Sequence record: KP869112
Reading direction: 5' to 3' (one strand)
DNA length: 64,000 bases
Origin: Escherichia coli O157 typing phage 14
The stretch's first letter is position 1, and each line of letters starts with the position of its first letter. The position numbers and the translations under genes are program-made. Shown piece by piece: positions 43,897-49,453 of this stretch. The notes beneath the pieces are model-generated. The model saw only the letters and a list, made by a program, of their open reading frames with translations, made no database searches and had not been told where the DNA came from.

Positions 43897-44464
43897 AGTA
43901 AATCTTATTTAACATTACCTCATCCTTTGCAGAAAGGATATCAAGATATGCATCACCAAATCTTCCTGCAACAACCTCTGCATGATACATCACTTCGTTA
44001 ACATCGTCAAGAGTGATAACCGGATGACCATATCTTTCTGAATATTGTCTCAGGGTGCGATGTAACGAGTCGTCATCATATGCAGACTTTTTAATATCAC
44101 AAACACGACGAATAGCCTTGATGTCGAAAAAACCTGTGCGATACCACCCAAGAAAAAGGTTTCGTGCAGTGTCAACATCTACATTGATACCATCAAGAAC
44201 CTTATCTACAAGATAGCTGTCATCCTTTGGACCAGCGTCCTTAGTGCGAATGTAGTTGCCATCTTTTCCAGGCGATAGCTCCTTCTCATCCCCAACCTGC
44301 ATGCCATCATTTGGCGGTGTTAGCCACTTATCCGGATGCTTACGATCACGAGCGTTAGAATGATTACGCTGGAAACCGGGCTTCCACTTGAAAGTTTTCT
44401 CCATCTGTTCTTCATTCTGATAACGTTTTGCAATCTTTTCACGGTCATCTTTGCGTGAACCCAT
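43886..44464 (-). CDS. hypothetical protein
   Basis: 192 aa; strong RBS GAGGAGG before ATG at 44462-44464; preceded by a long GC-rich leader. Confidence 0.5.
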   Translation of the reverse strand: MGSRKDDREKIAKRYQNEEQMEKTFKWKPGFQRNHSNARDRKHPDKWLTPPNDGMQVGDEKELSPGKDGNYIRTKDAGPKDDSYLVDKVLDGINVDVDTARNLFLGWYRTGFFDIKAIRRVCDIKKSAYDDDSLHRTLRQYSERYGHPVITLDDVNEVMYHAEVVAGRFGDAYLDILSAKDEVMLNKIYYER

Positions 44465-44559
44465 AGCTGCCTCCTCTTCAAGTTATAGAAAAACTCACTG
44501 TATCGCTTTGTAACGAGCTTTTCTATCAAACTGGTGCGATTGCCTTACCTGGTATAGTT

Positions 44560-44860
44560 TATATAGCTGTGGGGCTATTTAGGGGCCTCCTTGTCCGTTT
44601 CCACACATAAACTTTATCCAAACTCGCGCGGGAGACTCTTAACCGACTCCTTACGGCGCTGGCAAGCTTTCGTCGGTGGTCCACATTAGTGCTCGGCCTT
44701 TGGCCTGCGCTATCGCTTCGCTCCCACACATGTTAACATACCTGCATGTATGCACTTCTGTTATTGTGTGCACTATGGAGGCCCGGCATCTCGCCCCTCG
44801 TAGGCGAGTGCCAATGAAGGGCCGACACTATCCATAGTAAGCAATAAATTTAAAACATGG
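44560..44860. other. GC-rich ORF-free island (about 300 nt); candidate structured ncRNA or long structured 5' leader
   Basis: No ORF of 60 codons or more on either strand; multiple local hairpins (CUCGCC-CCUCGUA-GGCGAG, GGCC-UUU-GGCC); lies between the AT-rich/palindrome region and the start of 43886..44464. Confidence 0.3.
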
Positions 44861-44967
44861 TACTTAGGATCTAGTATATTCTACATAAGTTAAGTATATG
44901 TACTTTAGTACCATAAGTACTAGATCTTTTATTTTTTATTATTTAGTTATTTTAGTTATATTCTTTA

Positions 44968-45094
44968 TGTGTCCGTATCACGGACAGTTAGTGTCCGTAT
45001 TACGGGCAGATGTGTCCGCGTGACGGACAGTAGTGTCCGTATTACGGGCAGATGTGTCCGCGTGACGGACAGTGGTGTCCGTATCACGGACAGT
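44968..45094. repeat. array of six 17-bp palindromic sites at 21-22 bp spacing
   Basis: TGTCCGTATCACGGACA (44970, 45076), TGTCCGTATTACGGGCA (44992, 45034) and TGTCCGCGTGACGGACA (45013, 45055), arranged A-B-C-B-C-A; flanked by an AT-rich tract with GTACT and TTTAGTTAT repeats (44870-44968). Confidence 0.85.
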
Positions 45095-45167
45095 TGATAG
45101 CTTCTGTCCCATATCGAACATAAAACATACGAATCCTTATAGTACAGATATTTAAGTTTTTACTGGT

Positions 45168-45518
45168 CTAACCAGTTGTTGACATTCGAATAACTTCTTC
45201 TGGTGGCAAAACTTTGGAAAATGTGCATCTTTTACCTCTCCCCTGTGTGGATGTTTCAACCACTCCTGCACATTCTAAAGTTTTAACGCACGCTGCTGCT
45301 TTTGTTTTCTTTATCCCAACATCTGCTGCAATTTTCCTTGTGCTGGGTGTGAAGCGTGAATTTCCTCCAAGTTTATACCAGTTGTGCAGGTAGCAGTATA
45401 CGATCTTGTCATACAAGTCAAGAACAACAACCTCCCCAGTTGTGTCATTCAAAACTTTTGACATAGACAGTATTTCAAGGGGGACTTTAAGATATAGCAG
45501 CTTATCCCCATCTTTCAT
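45168..45518 (-). CDS. putative helix-turn-helix DNA-binding protein
   Basis: 116 aa; segment STRKIAADVGIKKTKAAACVKTLECAGVV has HTH character; gene ends about 75 bp from the palindrome array. Confidence 0.45.
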   Translation of the reverse strand: MKDGDKLLYLKVPLEILSMSKVLNDTTGEVVVLDLYDKIVYCYLHNWYKLGGNSRFTPSTRKIAADVGIKKTKAAACVKTLECAGVVETSTQGRGKRCTFSKVLPPEEVIRMSTTG

Positions 45519-45565
45519 ATCTCCTGATTCTCCTTGTGTGGCAATTTTCTTTAAAATAGCAGGGA

Positions 45566-46120
45566 TTACTCCCCGCTGTCAATAGCAAAACTCATTGCAA
45601 TACGGTATGCCTCTTCTAATGGTAAGAGTCTCCCCCACACATCCCAACCGACATCAAGCTGCCTGCCAAACAACTGTTGTGTGGTTCCGTGAGCATGACC
45701 GAACAGTTGGACTGATCCGTGAGGCTTTCTGTTCCACTTTGCAAATTGGTAATGGCTCATACAGATCAAATTCTTGTTGTGGCGAAGCTCGTAATAATCT
45801 ACAACCTCGTGATAGAACTCTTTCATAATTCTGACAGTCGTCCTTGTGTCATGGTTGCCACGAACAAGAATAATATGTCCGTTCAACATATTTAGAATAT
45901 CTGGAAGTAATTTGTTGATATTCTTATCATTAGTGCACGCAATATCTCCCAAGTGGAACACAGTGTCTGCAGGTGACACAACAGAGTTCCACTCGGCGAT
46001 GATTCCCGCATTCATACTGTCAAGATTGTGATCATACTGAGATCTGTGTTTTTGACATGAATCAAACTCCATGACCCGCTGGTGGAGAAAGTGTGTGTCG
46101 CTTGTTACAAAGTATTTCAT
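45566..46120 (-). CDS. calcineurin-like metallophosphoesterase
   Basis: Start reassigned to ATG 46118-46120 (MKYFVTSDTHF, RBS GAGGAA); motifs SDTHF, LGDI, RGNHD and FGHAHG are the metallophosphoesterase signature. Confidence 0.6.
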   Translation of the reverse strand: MKYFVTSDTHFLHQRVMEFDSCQKHRSQYDHNLDSMNAGIIAEWNSVVSPADTVFHLGDIACTNDKNINKLLPDILNMLNGHIILVRGNHDTRTTVRIMKEFYHEVVDYYELRHNKNLICMSHYQFAKWNRKPHGSVQLFGHAHGTTQQLFGRQLDVGWDVWGRLLPLEEAYRIAMSFAIDSGE

Positions 46121-46127
46121 ACATTCC

Positions 46128-46538
46128 TCATTTAAGTTTAATGCAGTTTTTAAGCTGGCGTTCCATACGATCCACAACCTTGTCTGGAACATCATGAATG
46201 CTTTTATTACCGTGGCGGTTTTCAACCACGATCACGGTATAACTATACCCATGACTGATTGCCATGTCAACATATTCCTGCACATGTTTTTCTTTTGTAA
46301 ACGTATTACTTACCACGATACGGTCGTATCCCATACGCATCATATCTTCTACGTTATCTTTGCACCATTTTGCTGCGAGTGTTACTTTACTTGCATCCCA
46401 GTTGTAATTGCCGTCATCGTCATACCAGAACATGTCGTTCTCAAAATGTGGATACAGACCTTCTAAAGATAGCGCATTTGCCAGTGTTGATTTGCCAGAC
46501 CCTGGCAGACCACGCACGATATATAGCATTTTAGACAT
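46128..46538 (-). CDS. P-loop kinase (polynucleotide kinase-like)
   Basis: Start reassigned to ATG 46536-46538 (RBS GGAGGA); Walker A GLPGSGKST; about 137 aa. Confidence 0.55.
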   Translation of the reverse strand: MSKMLYIVRGLPGSGKSTLANALSLEGLYPHFENDMFWYDDDGNYNWDASKVTLAAKWCKDNVEDMMRMGYDRIVVSNTFTKEKHVQEYVDMAISHGYSYTVIVVENRHGNKSIHDVPDKVVDRMERQLKNCIKLK

Positions 46539-46659
46539 AGCAATCCTCCGTTTTAATTTTAATGATAGTATACCTAACTGTTTTGTTAATTTCAAGTGTT
46601 GACACTAGGTTATTTGTGTGGCAGGATAGACTGACAAAATGACAAATGAGGAACGTATG

Positions 46660-47574
46660 ATGAAGTATTTTAATGCAGATGACCTAGTAGACAAAGGTCT
46701 TGTAACCAGTCGGTATTATCCAGATCTTGGATTAAAGATCTATAAATATGCCAGAAAAGTATTCTACAACAATCTGTGGCATTTGTCTCCGCGTTTACTG
46801 GAGTGCCGAGGTATTGTTGTTGGCAATGAGGGGAATGTTGTGGCATGGCCTTTCACAAAAGTATTCAACTTAGGAGAAAACTCCACCAACCTACCGGACA
46901 GTAAACTTGTTACTGCGGTAGAGAAAAAGAACGGATTCCTCGGTGTGGTATCATCTCATAAAGGTGAACTATTGTTCTCAACAACCGGGTCTCTTGATTC
47001 TCCATATTGTAACCTTGCAAAGGAAACCATCCAAGAGCAATGTGGTAATTTAGATCTTATCAAGAAGGTTATGGGCAATGAAAACATGACATTCATGTTT
47101 GAAATTTGTCACCCTTCAGATCCGCATATTGTTCAAGAAGACCATGGCGCATATTTGATAGGTTGCAGATATAATGATTCTGGAATAATGCTACCAGAAG
47201 CAGCTTTAGATGGGATTGCCAAATACCTTGGTGCAAAACGTCCTCACACTGTGCGTGAAATCCCGTTCAGCTATGCAAAAGAATTAGCTGCAGAAACAAG
47301 GGGCGAAGGGTATATGATCCGTAAGCCTTACTACCCTTATGACCTGCAGCTGAAGATCAAGTCTCCATACTATTTGGCACGGAAGGCCGTAATGAGAGGT
47401 AAAGCATGGAAGATTTGGGATGACGATATTTTTAAACGTGTTGACGAGGAGTTTTACGGTATGGTAAAATTTATTCGTAGCAACTATACAGAAGATGTGT
47501 GGAATTGCTTATTAGAGCAGGAGCGTCGCGAGATACTGGACTGCTATTTCCACAACGAGGACTATATGCAATGA
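46660..47574 (+). CDS. RNA ligase (nucleotidyltransferase superfamily)
   Basis: Motif I KKNGF (KxxG lysine) and motif IV GEGYMIRK; start taken as the ATG at 46660 (RBS GAGGAA 6 nt upstream), whereas the track starts at 46639. Confidence 0.55.
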   Translation: MKYFNADDLVDKGLVTSRYYPDLGLKIYKYARKVFYNNLWHLSPRLLECRGIVVGNEGNVVAWPFTKVFNLGENSTNLPDSKLVTAVEKKNGFLGVVSSHKGELLFSTTGSLDSPYCNLAKETIQEQCGNLDLIKKVMGNENMTFMFEICHPSDPHIVQEDHGAYLIGCRYNDSGIMLPEAALDGIAKYLGAKRPHTVREIPFSYAKELAAETRGEGYMIRKPYYPYDLQLKIKSPYYLARKAVMRGKAWKIWDDDIFKRVDEEFYGMVKFIRSNYTEDVWNCLLEQERREILDCYFHNEDYMQ

Positions 47575-47921
47575 AGAAGTGGATTGTGTGGCTTGATGAT
47601 TTTAGAGATCCGTCAGATTATGGACTCCCAGACGCTCTGTGGCTAAAGAATTCTTCTGAATTTATGGATTTTCTTAATGATAAGAGAAAGCTCTACAGAC
47701 GCGTATCTGAATGGTATTTTGACAATGATCTAGGTGAAGTTCTTGAAGGGTACGACTGCTTCTCTGCGCTAGAGGAGAAACTTGTATTCGGAAAGCCACC
47801 ACTTATTGACAACGTGATTATTTTCGTGCATACTTCTAATCCATCGGCAGCTCGTAAATTTATGCTTGCTGCTGACTCATTCAAGAAGTTTGGAATAGAG
47901 ATCAAACAAAACATCTACTAA
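47571..47921 (+). CDS. hypothetical protein
   Basis: ATG overlaps the RNA ligase stop (ATGA); 116 aa; no recognisable motif. Confidence 0.4.
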   Translation: MKKWIVWLDDFRDPSDYGLPDALWLKNSSEFMDFLNDKRKLYRRVSEWYFDNDLGEVLEGYDCFSALEEKLVFGKPPLIDNVIIFVHTSNPSAARKFMLAADSFKKFGIEIKQNIY

Positions 47922-47929
47922 GGACATTT

Positions 47930-48691
47930 ATGCGACGACTTATTGTTATTTCTGGTGCTGGTTTGAGCGCAGAATCTGGTATTCCCACCTTCCGATCTGG
48001 TAGCACTGCAATGTGGGAGAATTTCAGCATCGATGAGGTGTGCAACATCCACACCTTTGCCAAGAACTACTATAAGGTGCATGACTTTTACAATGCACGT
48101 CGTGTAGCGCTGGGCAGTGTTGATCCTAACCTTGCACATCTTCGGATCGCTGAGTGGTATTCCCGCTGGTCTGGTCGTGTGATCAACCTTACCACCAATG
48201 TAGATGATTTGCTGGAGCGTGCTGGTGTAAAACATGAAGATATTTTACATGTCCACGGGTATTTGCCTGAAATCACCTACGAAGATGCTGAAGGTAATGA
48301 TGTAATTAAAAATATCGGATACACGGAGGTAGATACAGGCAAGTATACCTGGGTTAAGCCCAATGTAGTGTTCTTCGGCGAGGTTGCTCCTAAGTATACA
48401 GACATGTATGACCTGTTGACATCTCTCACCAGCAATGATATGGTGATCCTAGTGGGTTGTTCTAACACAGTTATTAATTTTAACTGGGAATTGTTTCCTG
48501 CTACTTGTAAAGGAACAAAACTGCTGATTGTAAACAAGTATGATTCGCAGAGTGCAGATGGAAGTGGCATTTCACGTAGCGACCTTTATCAATATGAGGA
48601 TCGCGGGATCCCTGTATGGTTTAACGGTGCTGTTGACGCTTTCTCTGATAAAGCATTTATTGAAACTGTAGAAAACTTTATGGAACTTTAA
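47930..48691 (+). CDS. Sir2-family (sirtuin-like) NAD-dependent enzyme lacking the zinc ribbon
   Basis: Motifs GAGLSAESGIPTFRS, TTNVDDLLERAG, catalytic HVHG, VVFFGE and VGCSNTV match the sirtuin fold; no Cys pairs between the catalytic His and VVFFGE. Confidence 0.7.
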   Translation: MRRLIVISGAGLSAESGIPTFRSGSTAMWENFSIDEVCNIHTFAKNYYKVHDFYNARRVALGSVDPNLAHLRIAEWYSRWSGRVINLTTNVDDLLERAGVKHEDILHVHGYLPEITYEDAEGNDVIKNIGYTEVDTGKYTWVKPNVVFFGEVAPKYTDMYDLLTSLTSNDMVILVGCSNTVINFNWELFPATCKGTKLLIVNKYDSQSADGSGISRSDLYQYEDRGIPVWFNGAVDAFSDKAFIETVENFMEL

Positions 48692-48704
48692 AAGGAGACC
48701 TTTA

Positions 48705-49418
48705 ATGCTGAATACTAAACTGATCGACAACCTGGAAAAACTGTCTCAGCCTGAAAACTACCTTTGGTCTGCCAATTGGGTGGAAAACTGGAACCGTGTG
48801 GCAGCTAAAGTGAAAAAATCATACACACCATTCGAATTACAGCTTAGCTTCATTGAGGAAGAGTTCAATGAGGTTTTGGAAGAGCTGGAGAAAGGTGATG
48901 GTGGAGATCACCTGCTAAAAGAGGCCTGCGATCTTCACGTTGTCACAAGTTATGCCGCTTATCTTGTTAATGATAATCACGAAAAGTGGTCAAACCTGTT
49001 TGATAATCCGCGAGGTCTTAAGTTCAAGATCGGCGAGTTCTATGATACACTGATCGCTGCGAAAAACACCTCTAAGCAAAGAGCGTCTGCTTACCGCTTA
49101 GCAGAGTTGTCAACAGCTTTGCTGTTCCAGCTTCGCGGCGATGTGTGCGGGATGATGCGTAAGGTTCTCAAATCGAATGACAGCAAGTTTGCACGGGTCA
49201 ACCATCTACGGTATTCACACGGTGCCAGTGCAGATATGCCTGCTGAACAACTAATCGAGTTGGAGATTAAAGATCTTGAACGACGCTTTGATGGTCGATA
49301 TGAAGGTTTTGTTGCCAAGGAAGAATTCTACAACGGTAATAAAGTTATCATATTCCTTGACAGTAAAGGTAAGATCATGAAGCCTTCGAGCTTCAAGGAT
49401 GTAACAGAGTATATTTAA
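48705..49418 (+). CDS. MazG-like nucleotide pyrophosphohydrolase (putative)
   Basis: EExxE-type motif IEEEFNEVLEELEKGD followed by KEACDLHV, reminiscent of MazG; RBS AAGGAG. Confidence 0.4.
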   Translation: MLNTKLIDNLEKLSQPENYLWSANWVENWNRVAAKVKKSYTPFELQLSFIEEEFNEVLEELEKGDGGDHLLKEACDLHVVTSYAAYLVNDNHEKWSNLFDNPRGLKFKIGEFYDTLIAAKNTSKQRASAYRLAELSTALLFQLRGDVCGMMRKVLKSNDSKFARVNHLRYSHGASADMPAEQLIELEIKDLERRFDGRYEGFVAKEEFYNGNKVIIFLDSKGKIMKPSSFKDVTEYI

Positions 49419-49424
49419 CAACAT

Positions 49425-49453
49425 AGCCGGGATTACCCGGCTTTACTTATTAT
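49425..49453 (+). terminator. rho-independent terminator
   Basis: Stem AGCCGGG/CCCGGCT with loop AUUA followed by UUACUUAUUAU, 7 nt after the MazG-like stop. Confidence 0.55.

Follow-up and report, generated by a model that had tools for sequence, protein, structure and literature searches.

Does the divergent gene cluster at positions 45566-49418 of the window (the whole stretch of 64,000 nt that was analysed) encode an RNA repair system, and which of its six genes form the core of it? Phage rV5 (NC_011041) is 99.3% identical to the window and the gene boundaries agree with those of rv5_gp076-gp081, the names used below. The features concerned are the following.

45566-46120, minus strand: metallophosphoesterase (MPE), rv5_gp076, 184 aa from the ATG of MKYF
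46128-46538, minus strand: P-loop kinase, rv5_gp077, 136 aa
46539-46638, intergenic: 100-bp spacer separating the divergent kinase-MPE unit and ligase operon
46639-47574, plus strand: Rnl1-family RNA ligase, rv5_gp078, 311 aa
47571-47921, plus strand: cREC, rv5_gp079, 116 aa, between ligase and Sir2
47930-48691, plus strand: Sir2-family protein, rv5_gp080, 253 aa
48705-49418, plus strand: MazG-like protein, rv5_gp081, 237 aa, last gene in the ligase operon
49425-49442, both strands: terminator-like, GC-rich hairpin (AGCCGGG-ATTA-CCCGGCT)

An earlier note on this DNA had recognised a three-gene, RNA-repair-like set from motifs in the translated reading frames: a P-loop kinase (GLPGSGKST), a calcineurin-like MPE (SDTHF, GD, GNHD, GHAH) and an RNA ligase-like protein (KKNGF, EGYMIRK). 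The Pfam profile searches bear out the three assignments with scores far beyond chance (AAA_33, 1e-10; Metallophos, 5.6e-7; RNA_lig_T4_1, PF09511, 9.1e-15). The three genes do form a conserved triad; in rV5, however, they are part of a six-gene neighbourhood that also holds cREC, Sir2 and MazG-like genes. A Sir2-like gene is indeed nearby, as had been stated, with the cREC gene lying between it and the ligase; cREC, the MazG-like gene and the closing hairpin had been missed.

The kinase-MPE pair and the ligase are transcribed divergently across the 100-bp spacer, in agreement with the earlier description. The ligase is the first of four genes in an operon (ligase, cREC, Sir2, MazG-like). Its stop codon and the ATG of cREC share the sequence ATGA, and cREC is translationally coupled to the ligase; the following gaps measure 8 nt (cREC-Sir2) and 13 nt (Sir2-MazG). 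The hairpin, 7 nt past the MazG stop codon, closes this unit as a putative terminator, assigned by position because terminator-like sites are no more numerous in this region than chance predicts. Likewise, the spacer is presumed from its position to be a bidirectional promoter region: it contains a promoter-like TTGAAA-17-TATACT on the minus strand (46595-46567) and a TTGACA on the plus strand (46599-46604), and position is what this assignment goes by, because the promoter-like matches in the region (17, against a shuffle expectation of 13.2 ± 3.8) are not above chance. In rV5, a gene for an ATP-dependent DNA ligase follows 2.5 kb downstream.

gp078 belongs to the RNA ligase family phrog_562 (8.9e-66), and its family profile matches residues 46-267 of the T4 Rnl1 structure (PDB code: 2C5U) at 7.3e-24; in the PDB search the profile matched Rnl1 and not the Pnkp ligase, and fungal Trl1 ligase structures gave no match at E<=1. 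The EKKNGF and GEGYMIRK motifs are present. K96 and G99 of motif I (K96-K-N-G99), aligned to T4 K99 and G102, are invariant in nine diverged homologues and kept in at least 95% of 85, while motifs III (F154-E155), IV (E223-G224) and V (K239/K241) are also invariant and align to T4 E159, E227-G228 and K240/K242. The same holds for the Rnl1-specific N-terminal residues R57 (in LECRG; R57-G58), K74 and F76 (both in PFTKVFN), the two segments aligning to T4 LECRG and PMEKFFN with Arg54, Lys75 and Phe77, which are essential in T4 Rnl1. No equivalent of T4 Lys119 was found in gp078: STTGS aligns to T4 KSKGS with a Thr in its place. Nor was the T4-type C-terminal domain, which gives tRNA specificity in T4, found in gp078, the profile match stopping at T4 residue 267 (311 versus 374 aa). 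Because of this Thr, the short C-terminus and a score of 38 bits with the NCBIfam equivalog TIGR02308 (cut-off 242), gp078 is classified by its sequence as a member of the Rnl1 family and not as an equivalog of T4 RnlA. It is a candidate sealing enzyme, predicted to be an ATP-dependent RNA ligase. Many public records carry for it the T4-derived label "tail fiber attachment catalyst".

gp077 falls into phrog_2071 (ATPase, 3.3e-58) and phrog_505 ("polynucleotide kinase", 4.7e-10), and its best solved relatives in the profile search of the PDB are T4 Pnk (1LTQ, 1.3e-6) and Capnocytophaga Pnkp1 (4XRP, 1.5e-6), NRK1 being a weak sequence match (2.9e-4). When the AF2 model (pLDDT 91.4) was compared to the PDB with Foldseek, CthPnk (4JT2/4GP6, TMq 0.74-0.77) and T4 Pnk (0.72-0.75) ranked first and the tRNA kinase PSTK next, the three together covering TMq 0.70-0.77; gluconate, adenylate and shikimate kinases were lower (0.35-0.60) and NRK was not among the best 50 matches. 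Judged by this model, the fold is closer to Pnk than to nucleoside or NMP kinases. In the P-loop (RGLPGSGKST, G10-LPGSGKST) all 53 sequences compared have G10, G15, K16 and T18, and R9, D35, N78, T79, E106, N107, R108, H109 and H115 are among the other invariant residues of the family. D35 corresponds to the general base (T4 Asp35, Cth Asp38) and aligns to the T4 NRDD segment, where the HMMER register is off by one; in either register an equivalent of T4 Arg38 / Cth Arg41, which binds the 3' phosphate of the acceptor nucleotide, is absent. The family consensus there is EADxF[FWY] (END-MFW in rV5), with an aromatic residue in the place of Arg38, as in some nucleoside kinases. In the lid segment, the invariant R108 (VENRHG) aligns to T4 R122, and T4 R126 to a non-conserved K112. 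gp077 is a stand-alone, minimal, polynucleotide-kinase-like protein and a candidate 5'-OH RNA kinase.

gp076 also matches Metallophos_2 (1.6e-6) and the phosphoesterase family phrog_547 (1.7e-51). The SDTHF, HLGD, GNHD and GHAHG motifs are present; D8, H13, G58-D59, G88-N89-H90, H123 and G141-H142-x-H144 are invariant, H10 and D91 nearly so, and the metal-ligand motifs (DxH, GD, GNH[DE], H, GHxH) are kept in at least 95% of 75 homologues. By these motifs the enzyme is classed, as in the earlier note, as a calcineurin-type MPE and not a HAD-type phosphatase. In the PDB, the MPE profile matched only Aquifex aq_1665 (1XM7, 3e-21) and, weakly, GpdQ, and gave no match to lambda phosphatase or CthPnkp; aq_1665, the sole close solved relative, is uncharacterised. 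Distant homologues were found in Gram-positive phages that do not carry the ligase. gp076 is a candidate for the healing of 3' ends, as a 2',3'-cyclic phosphodiesterase / phosphomonoesterase.

Linkage was surveyed in 90 phage loci, whose ligases fall into 48 clusters at <=70% identity. Of these 48 lineages, 40 carry the kinase within 2 kb of the ligase, 42 carry the MPE that close and 35 have both, and the gene order varies (MPE-ligase-kinase, 18; kinase-ligase-MPE, 12; ligase-kinase-MPE, 3). By host genus, the tblastn record counts for ligase/kinase hardly differ: 198/197 in Escherichia, 177/173 in Pseudomonas and 37/36 in Klebsiella. The triad extends over Vequintavirinae, Stephanstirmvirinae, Pakpunavirus, Otagovirus, T5-like vibriophages and Saclayvirus; the grouping of ligase, kinase and MPE is conserved among phages that have diverged. 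Fusion of kinase and ligase was found in two phage loci and in 66 of the 75 bacterial loci (in Neisseria, Kingella, Moraxella, Cardiobacterium and Actinobacillus), in the latter usually with the MPE downstream. In 38 of the bacterial loci a Ro60-like TROVE+vWA gene stands upstream in the same orientation, and Neisseria and Moraxella are among the genera with fusions beside Ro60. Ro60 is an RNA-quality-control protein that occurs in RtcB RNA-repair operons. The phage linkage in shuffled order, the bacterial fusion and the Ro60 context therefore support a self-sufficient, T4/Pnkp-like heal-and-seal module.

We propose, with a probability of roughly 0.7, that this phage locus encodes a module for RNA repair by healing and sealing, which most likely acts on RNAs that bacterial defence nucleases have cut, for instance tRNAs cleaved by anticodon nucleases. 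The MPE (gp076) would remove the cyclic or terminal phosphate to leave a 3'-OH,2'-OH end, the Pnk-like kinase (gp077) would phosphorylate the 5'-OH, and gp078 would adenylate the 5'-phosphate via Lys96 and seal the break. The triad is the conserved core of the module and is probably self-sufficient. The analysis shows family and fold assignment, catalytic-residue conservation, conserved linkage and gene fusion; the reactions themselves and the RNA on which they act are inferred throughout. As far as sequence, fold and genomic context go, the RNA-repair reading is supported. The cluster is real and coherent, but already known: public records annotate RNA ligase, polynucleotide kinase and phosphoesterase, and the neighbourhood has been described (Iyer et al. 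2022); that both arrive at the same functional class was counted in favour of RNA repair, as was the presence of a tRNA gene cluster nearby. A literature search found no biochemical or genetic test of these proteins. Counted on the opposite side were the kinase without an Arg38 equivalent and its weak match to NRK1, the uncharacterised state of the MPE's close relative and the occurrence of distant MPE homologues in phages that have no such ligase, the ligase with Thr at Lys119 and without the T4 C-terminal domain, and the NAD+-reconstitution genes that often adjoin the triad.

Phage T4 counters the PrrC anticodon nuclease with Pnkp and Rnl1 (RnlA). rV5 shares the logic of a lytic phage equipped with enzymes for 5' phosphorylation, 3' phosphate removal and ligation, the ligase being of the same family, with its catalytic motifs, and the kinase of the same clade as T4 Pnk. 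In T4, however, a HAD phosphatase is fused to the kinase, whereas rV5 has a separate calcineurin-type MPE, a minimal kinase without the Arg38 equivalent and the shorter ligase with a Thr at Lys119 that stays far below the TIGR02308 cut-off. The Clostridium thermocellum Pnkp/Hen1 system comprises the same three chemistries, with a binuclear metallophosphoesterase for 3' healing, and in fold the rV5 kinase matches CthPnk best. It differs in uniting the three activities in one polypeptide, in its lambda-phosphatase-type MPE (aq_1665-like in rV5) and in its Pnkp-type ligase (Rnl1-type in rV5); no Hen1 or any other methyltransferase was detected by Pfam among the genes scanned around the cluster. 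The likeness to T4 Pnk/Rnl1 and bacterial Pnkp drawn in the earlier note, with the activities on separate polypeptides, is borne out by the families and the fold; the MPE is not of the lambda-phosphatase type and the kinase departs at Arg38. By analogy, the triad may act as T4 Pnkp plus Rnl1 or bacterial Pnkp do, but as three polypeptides and with an unrelated phosphoesterase family.

tRNA-cutting nucleases are widespread in bacterial immunity, and hardly any phage repair countermeasure other than T4 Pnkp/Rnl1 has, to our knowledge, been elucidated by experiment. The rV5-type triad would represent a second, much wider-spread design, with an uncharacterised phosphoesterase family and a minimal kinase. 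If confirmed biochemically, it would add a new family of end-healing enzymes and help to predict which therapeutic phages resist RNA-targeting defences.

The remaining genes of the operon are lineage-specific accessories, co-transcribed with the ligase in rV5-like phages, through which more kinds of damaged ends or by-products can probably be dealt with. cREC (for cyclic-phosphate-processing receiver-like; Pfam cREC_REC, 9.6e-14; phrog_1479, 3.2e-33) has a conserved acidic DNDLG and an HTSNP segment and was seen only in enterobacterial phages (342 records). The Sir2 protein (Pfam SIR2, 6.9e-28) has E. coli CobB as its closest solved structure (1S5P, 2.4e-21); it conserves GAGxS, TTNVDDL and HG, retaining the NAD-binding motif and the catalytic His, the zinc-cysteine positions of CobB align to non-cysteines, and none of the PADLOC defence Sir2 models match it. 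gp081 matches phrog_671 (5.4e-22) and gave no Pfam, NCBIfam or PDB sequence match; it is a candidate MazG-like nucleotide pyrophosphohydrolase, and was named a MazG-superfamily pyrophosphatase by Iyer et al. (2022).

These authors (Iyer, Burroughs, Anantharaman and Aravind 2022, Viruses 14:1977) described a sirtuin-centred RNA-repair neighbourhood of type 2, with Escherichia phage V5 and Proteus phage Mydo as prototypes, composed of a sirtuin, a T4-like tRNA ligase, cREC, a nucleotide kinase, a pyrophosphatase of the MazG superfamily and a calcineurin-like phosphoesterase; the present locus is identical, with all six genes. They proposed that Sir2 removes a 2'-phosphate with NAD+. Extended to one obligate six-gene pathway in rV5, resembling that of Trl1/Tpt1, this would mean that the 2',3'-cyclic phosphate is opened by cREC or the MPE so as to leave a 2'-phosphate, that kinase and ligase connect the ends, that Sir2 acts on the junction, and that the MPE, cREC and MazG clear the ADP-ribose cyclic phosphate by-products. 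We consider this unlikely, even though it has been published for this very phage, the four operon genes are tightly packed up to the hairpin and kept as a set in PVP-SE1 and Klebsiella/Seunavirus relatives, and the Sir2 keeps its NAD-binding and catalytic residues, lacks the zinc module and resembles no defence-type model. Counted from the sirtuin, the phosphoesterase is "occasional" (Iyer et al. 2022), whereas counted from the ligase the opposite is obtained, kinase and MPE being near-constant and Sir2, cREC and MazG limited to a Vequintavirinae-like branch (cREC, Sir2 and MazG lie within 2 kb of the ligase in 4, 2 and 1 of the 48 lineages, respectively). Within 10 kb, 45 of the 48 ligase lineages have no Sir2 and 44 no cREC, and they keep kinase and MPE, so the triad core cannot depend on Sir2. 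Conversely, of the 1011 phage records with Sir2, several hundred come from host genera that have the ligase seldom or not at all (in Salmonella, 289 records for Sir2 versus 14 for the ligase).

The fungal and plant Trl1/Tpt1 system likewise combines an Rnl1-clade ligase, a P-loop polynucleotide kinase and an enzyme that opens the cyclic phosphate, and Sir2 could be an NAD+-using partner in the place of Tpt1. The KxNG form of motif I, which we take to be that of Trl1 ligases, also points weakly in this direction. The cyclic phosphate is opened there by a 2H phosphodiesterase, the place of which the MPE or cREC would take in rV5; no Tpt1/KptA gene is linked, and the rV5 ligase, the profile of which did not detect Trl1, stands much nearer to T4 Rnl1, a ligase that seals 2'-OH ends. 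We know of no sirtuin with RNA 2'-phosphotransferase activity. It is doubtful, though conceivable for rV5-like phages, that the zinc-less Sir2 and cREC add to RNA end healing a second branch that consumes NAD+, as predicted by Iyer et al. (2022), in which cREC would convert the 2',3'-cyclic phosphate to a 2'-phosphate and Sir2, as a non-ART analogue of Tpt1/KptA, would remove the latter by ADP-ribosyl transfer; the data do not support it as a general mechanism. If true, such 2'-phosphate removal would be new to sirtuins and would provide a bacterial-virus counterpart of eukaryotic tRNA-splicing chemistry.

A nucleotide-metabolic role of the triad can formally be entertained because NAD+-reconstitution genes often adjoin it: Adps-like genes lie within 10 kb in 17 and Namat-like (NARP1) genes in 23 of the 48 lineages, directly after the triad in PAK_P2, Thalassa, JSF10 and PN09. 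The kinase would then act on a nucleoside (e.g. nicotinamide riboside) or an ADP-ribose derivative, the ligase would transfer AMP to a small 5'-phosphate acceptor (e.g. NMN, yielding NAD+), and the MPE would trim phosphorylated ADP-ribose products, the whole backing NAD+ reconstitution against NAD+-depleting defences. The Asp-x-aromatic motif and NRK1 match of the kinase and the Sir2 and MazG-like genes in the ligase operon would fit this scheme, but it is very improbable: the kinase fold is nearest to polynucleotide kinases and a tRNA kinase, all nucleic-acid ligase motifs and the Rnl1-specific N-terminal residues are conserved, the bacterial kinase-ligase fusions adjoin the RNA-binding Ro60 and not NAD genes, and the known NARP pathways are complete without the triad (NARP1-AP has a Macro-domain phosphatase, NARP3 has PnuC and NadR).

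DNA-end processing, with kinase and MPE as a PNKP-type cleaning pair in replication or recombination, or a mainly non-catalytic, tail-fibre attachment function of the ligase as reported for T4 gp63, is hardly credible: T4 Pnk does act on DNA, a DNA ligase gene lies within 10 kb of the RNA ligase in 16 of the 48 lineages and the tail-fibre label is common, but that dedicated DNA ligase is already encoded and within 2 kb in just 8 of 48, Rnl1-family enzymes require a ribo 3'-OH, the T4 ligase C-terminal region is not conserved, and the same triad stands beside Ro60 in bacterial chromosomes, where tail fibres are irrelevant.

Two further observations concern the surroundings of the locus. The cumulative GC skew has its minimum at 44001-46000, just upstream of the 46539-46638 spacer, and seven tRNA genes, including tRNA-Lys(UUU), are clustered 3.5 kb away.

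The 4.5 kb around the three genes that the earlier note had read from the sequence as an RNA-repair-like set (45566-47574) share 99.3% identity with Escherichia phage rV5/V5 (NC_011041, DQ832317) and 97% identity with many other Vequintavirus genomes, and the boundaries of rv5_gp076 to gp081 agree with those of the window genes. The three ORFs and the motifs quoted for them are all present:

45566-46120, minus strand: calcineurin-like metallophosphoesterase (MPE, rv5_gp076), motifs SDTHF, HLGD, GNHD and GHAHG
46128-46538, minus strand: P-loop kinase (rv5_gp077), motif RGLPGSGKST
46639-47574, plus strand: Rnl1-family RNA ligase (rv5_gp078), motifs EKKNGF and GEGYMIRK

Profile HMM searches bear out these assignments, both with Pfam (Metallophos 5.6e-7, AAA_33 1e-10 and RNA_lig_T4_1 9.1e-15) and with PHROGs (1.7e-51 for the MPE, 3.3e-58 for the kinase and 8.9e-66 for the ligase), where the kinase also matches a "polynucleotide kinase" family at 4.7e-10. 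The rV5 record labels the MPE, kinase and ligase as phosphoesterase, ATPase and RNA ligase 1; the record of the BASEL phage EmilHeitz labels them as putative phosphoesterase, polynucleotide kinase and RNA ligase. The kinase-MPE pair diverges from the ligase, as had been noted, across a 100-bp spacer, just upstream of which the cumulative GC skew has its minimum. The ligase heads a compact four-gene unit, which the earlier note had overlooked:

47571-47921: cREC gene (rv5_gp079; Pfam cREC_REC 9.6e-14), its ATG overlapping the ligase stop codon
47930-48691: Sir2 gene (rv5_gp080), 8 nt after the cREC gene

A MazG-like gene (rv5_gp081) follows Sir2 after 13 nt, and a GC-rich hairpin lies 7 nt 3' of it. 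Promoter and terminator scans of the region gave nothing above shuffle expectation, so the boundaries of the transcription units are drawn from gene spacing only; the small ORFs on the flanks gave no relevant Pfam match.

A single-sequence search of the PDB with the ligase gave no match. A profile of nine homologues (27-50% identity) matched T4 Rnl1 (PDB code: 2C5U) at 7.3e-24 over T4 residues 46-267, and did not detect the fungal Trl1 ligase structures. Lys96/Gly99 (motif I), Phe154-Glu155 (motif III), Glu223-Gly224 (motif IV) and Lys239/Lys241 (motif V) are invariant and aligned with T4, and the Rnl1-specific Arg57, Lys74 and Phe76 are likewise invariant in the family, with their T4 counterparts aligned. 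The rV5 enzyme differs from T4 Rnl1, however, in carrying a Thr at the Lys119 position and in its C-terminus, which is ~60 residues shorter and unrelated, and it scores far under the NCBIfam equivalog cut-off. PADLOC models returned no defence-type match for the ligase, the MPE or Sir2.

With the kinase, a single-sequence PDB search yielded marginal P-loop matches only, while the best solved relatives of a profile of eight homologues were T4 Pnk (1.3e-6, full kinase domain) and Capnocytophaga Pnkp1 (1.5e-6); CthPnk matched more weakly, and nicotinamide riboside kinase matched at 2.9e-4 over the N-terminal half only. Foldseek comparison of an AlphaFold2 model (mean pLDDT 91.4, alignment of 53 sequences) with the PDB gave TMq values of 0.74-0.77 for CthPnk, 0.72-0.75 for T4 Pnk, 0.70-0.72 for the tRNA kinase PSTK and 0.35-0.60 for small-molecule and NMP kinases. 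The family has very many members, every one of the 8000 scored candidates being significant, and nearly all are stand-alone proteins of ~130 aa. The P-loop does not vary, nor does Asp35, the presumed general base. At the position of T4 Pnk Arg38 the whole family has an aromatic residue, and the correspondence of the lid arginine to that of T4 Pnk is ambiguous in the alignment. By modelled fold and sequence the rV5 kinase belongs to the Pnk clade, but with an acceptor-binding site different from those of the characterised enzymes. PN09_034, tried as a kinase homologue, is unrelated by alignment; the kinase is PN09_033.

Every canonical binuclear-metal ligand is conserved in the MPE. Its family profile matches only the uncharacterised Aquifex aq_1665 (PDB code: 1XM7, 3e-21) and, weakly, GpdQ, and in the PDB it matched neither lambda phosphatase nor the phosphatase domain of CthPnkp. 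Distant homologues (~30% identity) occur in Gram-positive Herelleviridae phages that have no ligase. A gene of Vibrio phage JSF10 (4120-4689 of locus L010) annotated as "phosphohydrolase (MutT/nudix family protein)" was dropped as a Nudix seed, being really an aq_1665-like MPE (SDLHF...GNHD...GHCHG), and 7813-8439 of L006 (Acinetobacter phage Aci02-2) probably carries the same mislabel; the MutT/nudix label on MPE genes is an annotation error spread through public records.

Ligase and kinase have closely similar distributions among phages, a match broken by Streptomyces phages, in which the ligase is paired with a T4-type Pnk.

Records matched by tblastn among 50,697 phage records
Ligase: 768 (Escherichia 198, Pseudomonas 177, Klebsiella 37, Acinetobacter 24)
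Kinase: 621 (Escherichia 197, Pseudomonas 173, Klebsiella 36, Acinetobacter 24)
MPE: 1361, with a broader spread that includes Gram-positive phages
cREC: 342, enterobacterial phages only
Sir2: 1011, several hundred of them in genera where the ligase is rare (e.g. Salmonella, 289 vs 14)

Some 18-23 unannotated "Campylobacter phage" records (MG065644-MG065690; host given as Campylobacter jejuni) share 97-100% identity with rV5-type coliphages over the whole of this region, and their host labels look doubtful.

Linkage was counted over 48 ligase clusters at <=70% identity, drawn from 90 ligase-anchored loci (80 from IMG/VR and 10 from GenBank) that were collected with a seven-sequence ligase alignment and in which all ORFs were searched with iterated HMMs. 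Less than 2 kb from the ligase, the kinase is found in 40/48 clusters, the MPE in 42/48 and both in 35/48. The order is MPE-ligase-kinase in 18 clusters, kinase-ligase-MPE in 12 and ligase-kinase-MPE in three, the divergent layout of rV5 is confined to rV5-like phages, and kinase and ligase are fused in two of the 90 loci. Adjacency kept despite shuffled order, together with the occurrence of fusions, is the classic signature of a functional unit.

The same genes were found at 75 loci in a bacterial scan of one genome per species. In 66 of these, kinase and ligase form one polypeptide of ~490-510 aa (Neisseria, Kingella, Eikenella, Moraxella, Cardiobacterium, Actinobacillus and a Campylobacter), usually with the MPE downstream (e.g. 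L105 5738-10802 and L132 5566-9623), and the flanks hold chromosomal genes of an ordinary kind, glycerate kinase and UvrD among them. In 38 loci a same-strand upstream gene encodes TROVE and Ro60-vWA domains (Pfam 3.2e-9 and 9.7e-19). In other bacteria, RtcB RNA-repair operons are accompanied by Ro60, a protein of RNA quality control, and its presence here independently supports, by context, an RNA substrate. The Ro60-like gene is replaced in Moraxella osloensis by a gene for a TerD-vWA protein; eight ORFs in the phage loci match this protein, so a Ter-like component may accompany some phage versions too. Between fusion and MPE, a further conserved ORF of 176 aa (L105 9001-9531), which has no Pfam match, is present in many Neisseria loci.

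The best-supported reading of the triad is a heal-and-seal pathway like those of T4 and Pnkp, in which the MPE would convert 2',3'-cyclic or terminal phosphates to 3'-OH, the kinase would phosphorylate the 5'-OH and the Rnl1-type ligase would seal the break. The triad is kept in most lineages without Sir2 or cREC and should therefore be self-sufficient. The same neighbourhood was described in phage V5 by Iyer et al. 2022, in whose proposal the sirtuin uses NAD+ to take off 2'-phosphates, in analogy to KptA/Tpt1. The tight operon with the ligase keeps alive the possibility that Sir2, cREC and MazG form such an NAD+-dependent branch, specific to the rV5 lineage; however, they seldom lie near the ligase (within 2 kb, cREC in 4/48 clusters, Sir2 in 2/48 and MazG in 1/48), Sir2 is present in many phages that have no ligase, and the ligase is much nearer to T4 Rnl1 than to Trl1. 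We argue that the three are accessories of a Vequintavirinae-like branch and not part of the core. The rV5 Sir2 retains the NAD-binding and catalytic residues and aligns over the Rossmann core to its closest solved relative, E. coli CobB, with replacements at all four zinc-binding cysteine positions of CobB, which leaves this phage clade with a degenerate small zinc module.

A role of the triad in nucleotide metabolism was considered because NAD+ reconstitution genes are frequently found downstream of it in phages (Adps-like in 17/48 and Namat-like in 23/48 ligase lineages, <=10 kb from the ligase). The polynucleotide-kinase type of the kinase fold and the Ro60 context in bacteria argue against it, as does the fact that the NARP pathways need no triad gene to be complete, and this holds also for their recently found phosphatase (a Macro-domain protein) and for NARP3 (PnuC plus NadR). 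The same neighbours, together with the weak NRK1 match, raised the reading of the kinase as a nucleoside kinase, for nicotinamide riboside or another substrate, rejected as the leading one since the fold search groups it with polynucleotide kinases.

In Pakpunavirus, Otagovirus and T5-like vibriophages, PRPP-synthetase-like and NamPT-like genes (Adps/Namat of the NAD+ reconstitution pathway NARP1) directly follow the triad. Thalassa-like vibriophages, the group of phage Gary, have a 474-nt gene between triad and NAD+ genes, at the position of the phosphatase Adpp in Gary. The loci concerned, over all of these groups, are L003 7322-10148, L004 8746-11805, L010 5818-8870 and L008 7925-11938. Adpp is a Macro-domain protein, and the recently reported "phage phosphatases" are not the MPE or other triad genes. 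Triad and NARP1 together make up a counter-defence gene island that would join RNA repair to the rebuilding of NAD+.

In this very phage the cluster already carries annotation and has a published description, and a literature search found no experimental characterisation of the rV5 ligase, kinase or MPE. The observation in the earlier note was correct, and we infer support for its RNA-repair reading. Four points are added here: the three genes, and not the sirtuin, are the conserved core; the same system is present in bacteria as Ro60-linked kinase-ligase fusions; the MPE is a member of an uncharacterised family distinct from the phosphoesterase of Pnkp; and the kinase has no canonical acceptor-binding arginine. 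Some of these may already be covered by Burroughs and Aravind 2016, and the bacterial layout, with Ro60, the kinase-ligase fusion and the MPE, may have been described there or by Sim et al. 2020.

Two further features lie near the triad:

42023-42119, minus strand: 97-nt tRNA-like gene, anticodon loop UUUUUAA, tRNA-Lys(UUU)
44927-45093: array of six 21-bp units, each with the palindrome GTCCG-N5-CGGAC; consensus ATGTGTCCGTATCACGGACAG

The first, unannotated in NC_011041 and tRNA-Lys in BASEL records, scores 35.5 bits with the Rfam tRNA model, was miscalled by ARAGORN as having a 4-base anticodon, and is predicted to fold into a cloverleaf with one additional hairpin (z = -4.1); it departs from the normal lysine tRNAs of class I in having an extra arm of 26 nt, which includes a stem of 5 bp. 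PrrC and PARIS both target tRNA-Lys(UUU), and the gene, 3.5 kb from the repair genes, may thus encode a nuclease-resistant replacement tRNA. The array is preceded by an AT-rich TTTTATT/TTTTAGTTA stretch and lies just downstream of an HTH/DUF6945 gene (45168-45518, minus strand; "replication initiation protein" in the rV5 annotation), within 44001-46000, the interval of lowest cumulative GC skew; its repeats resemble iterons or operators, such as would belong to a replication origin or a regulatory region.
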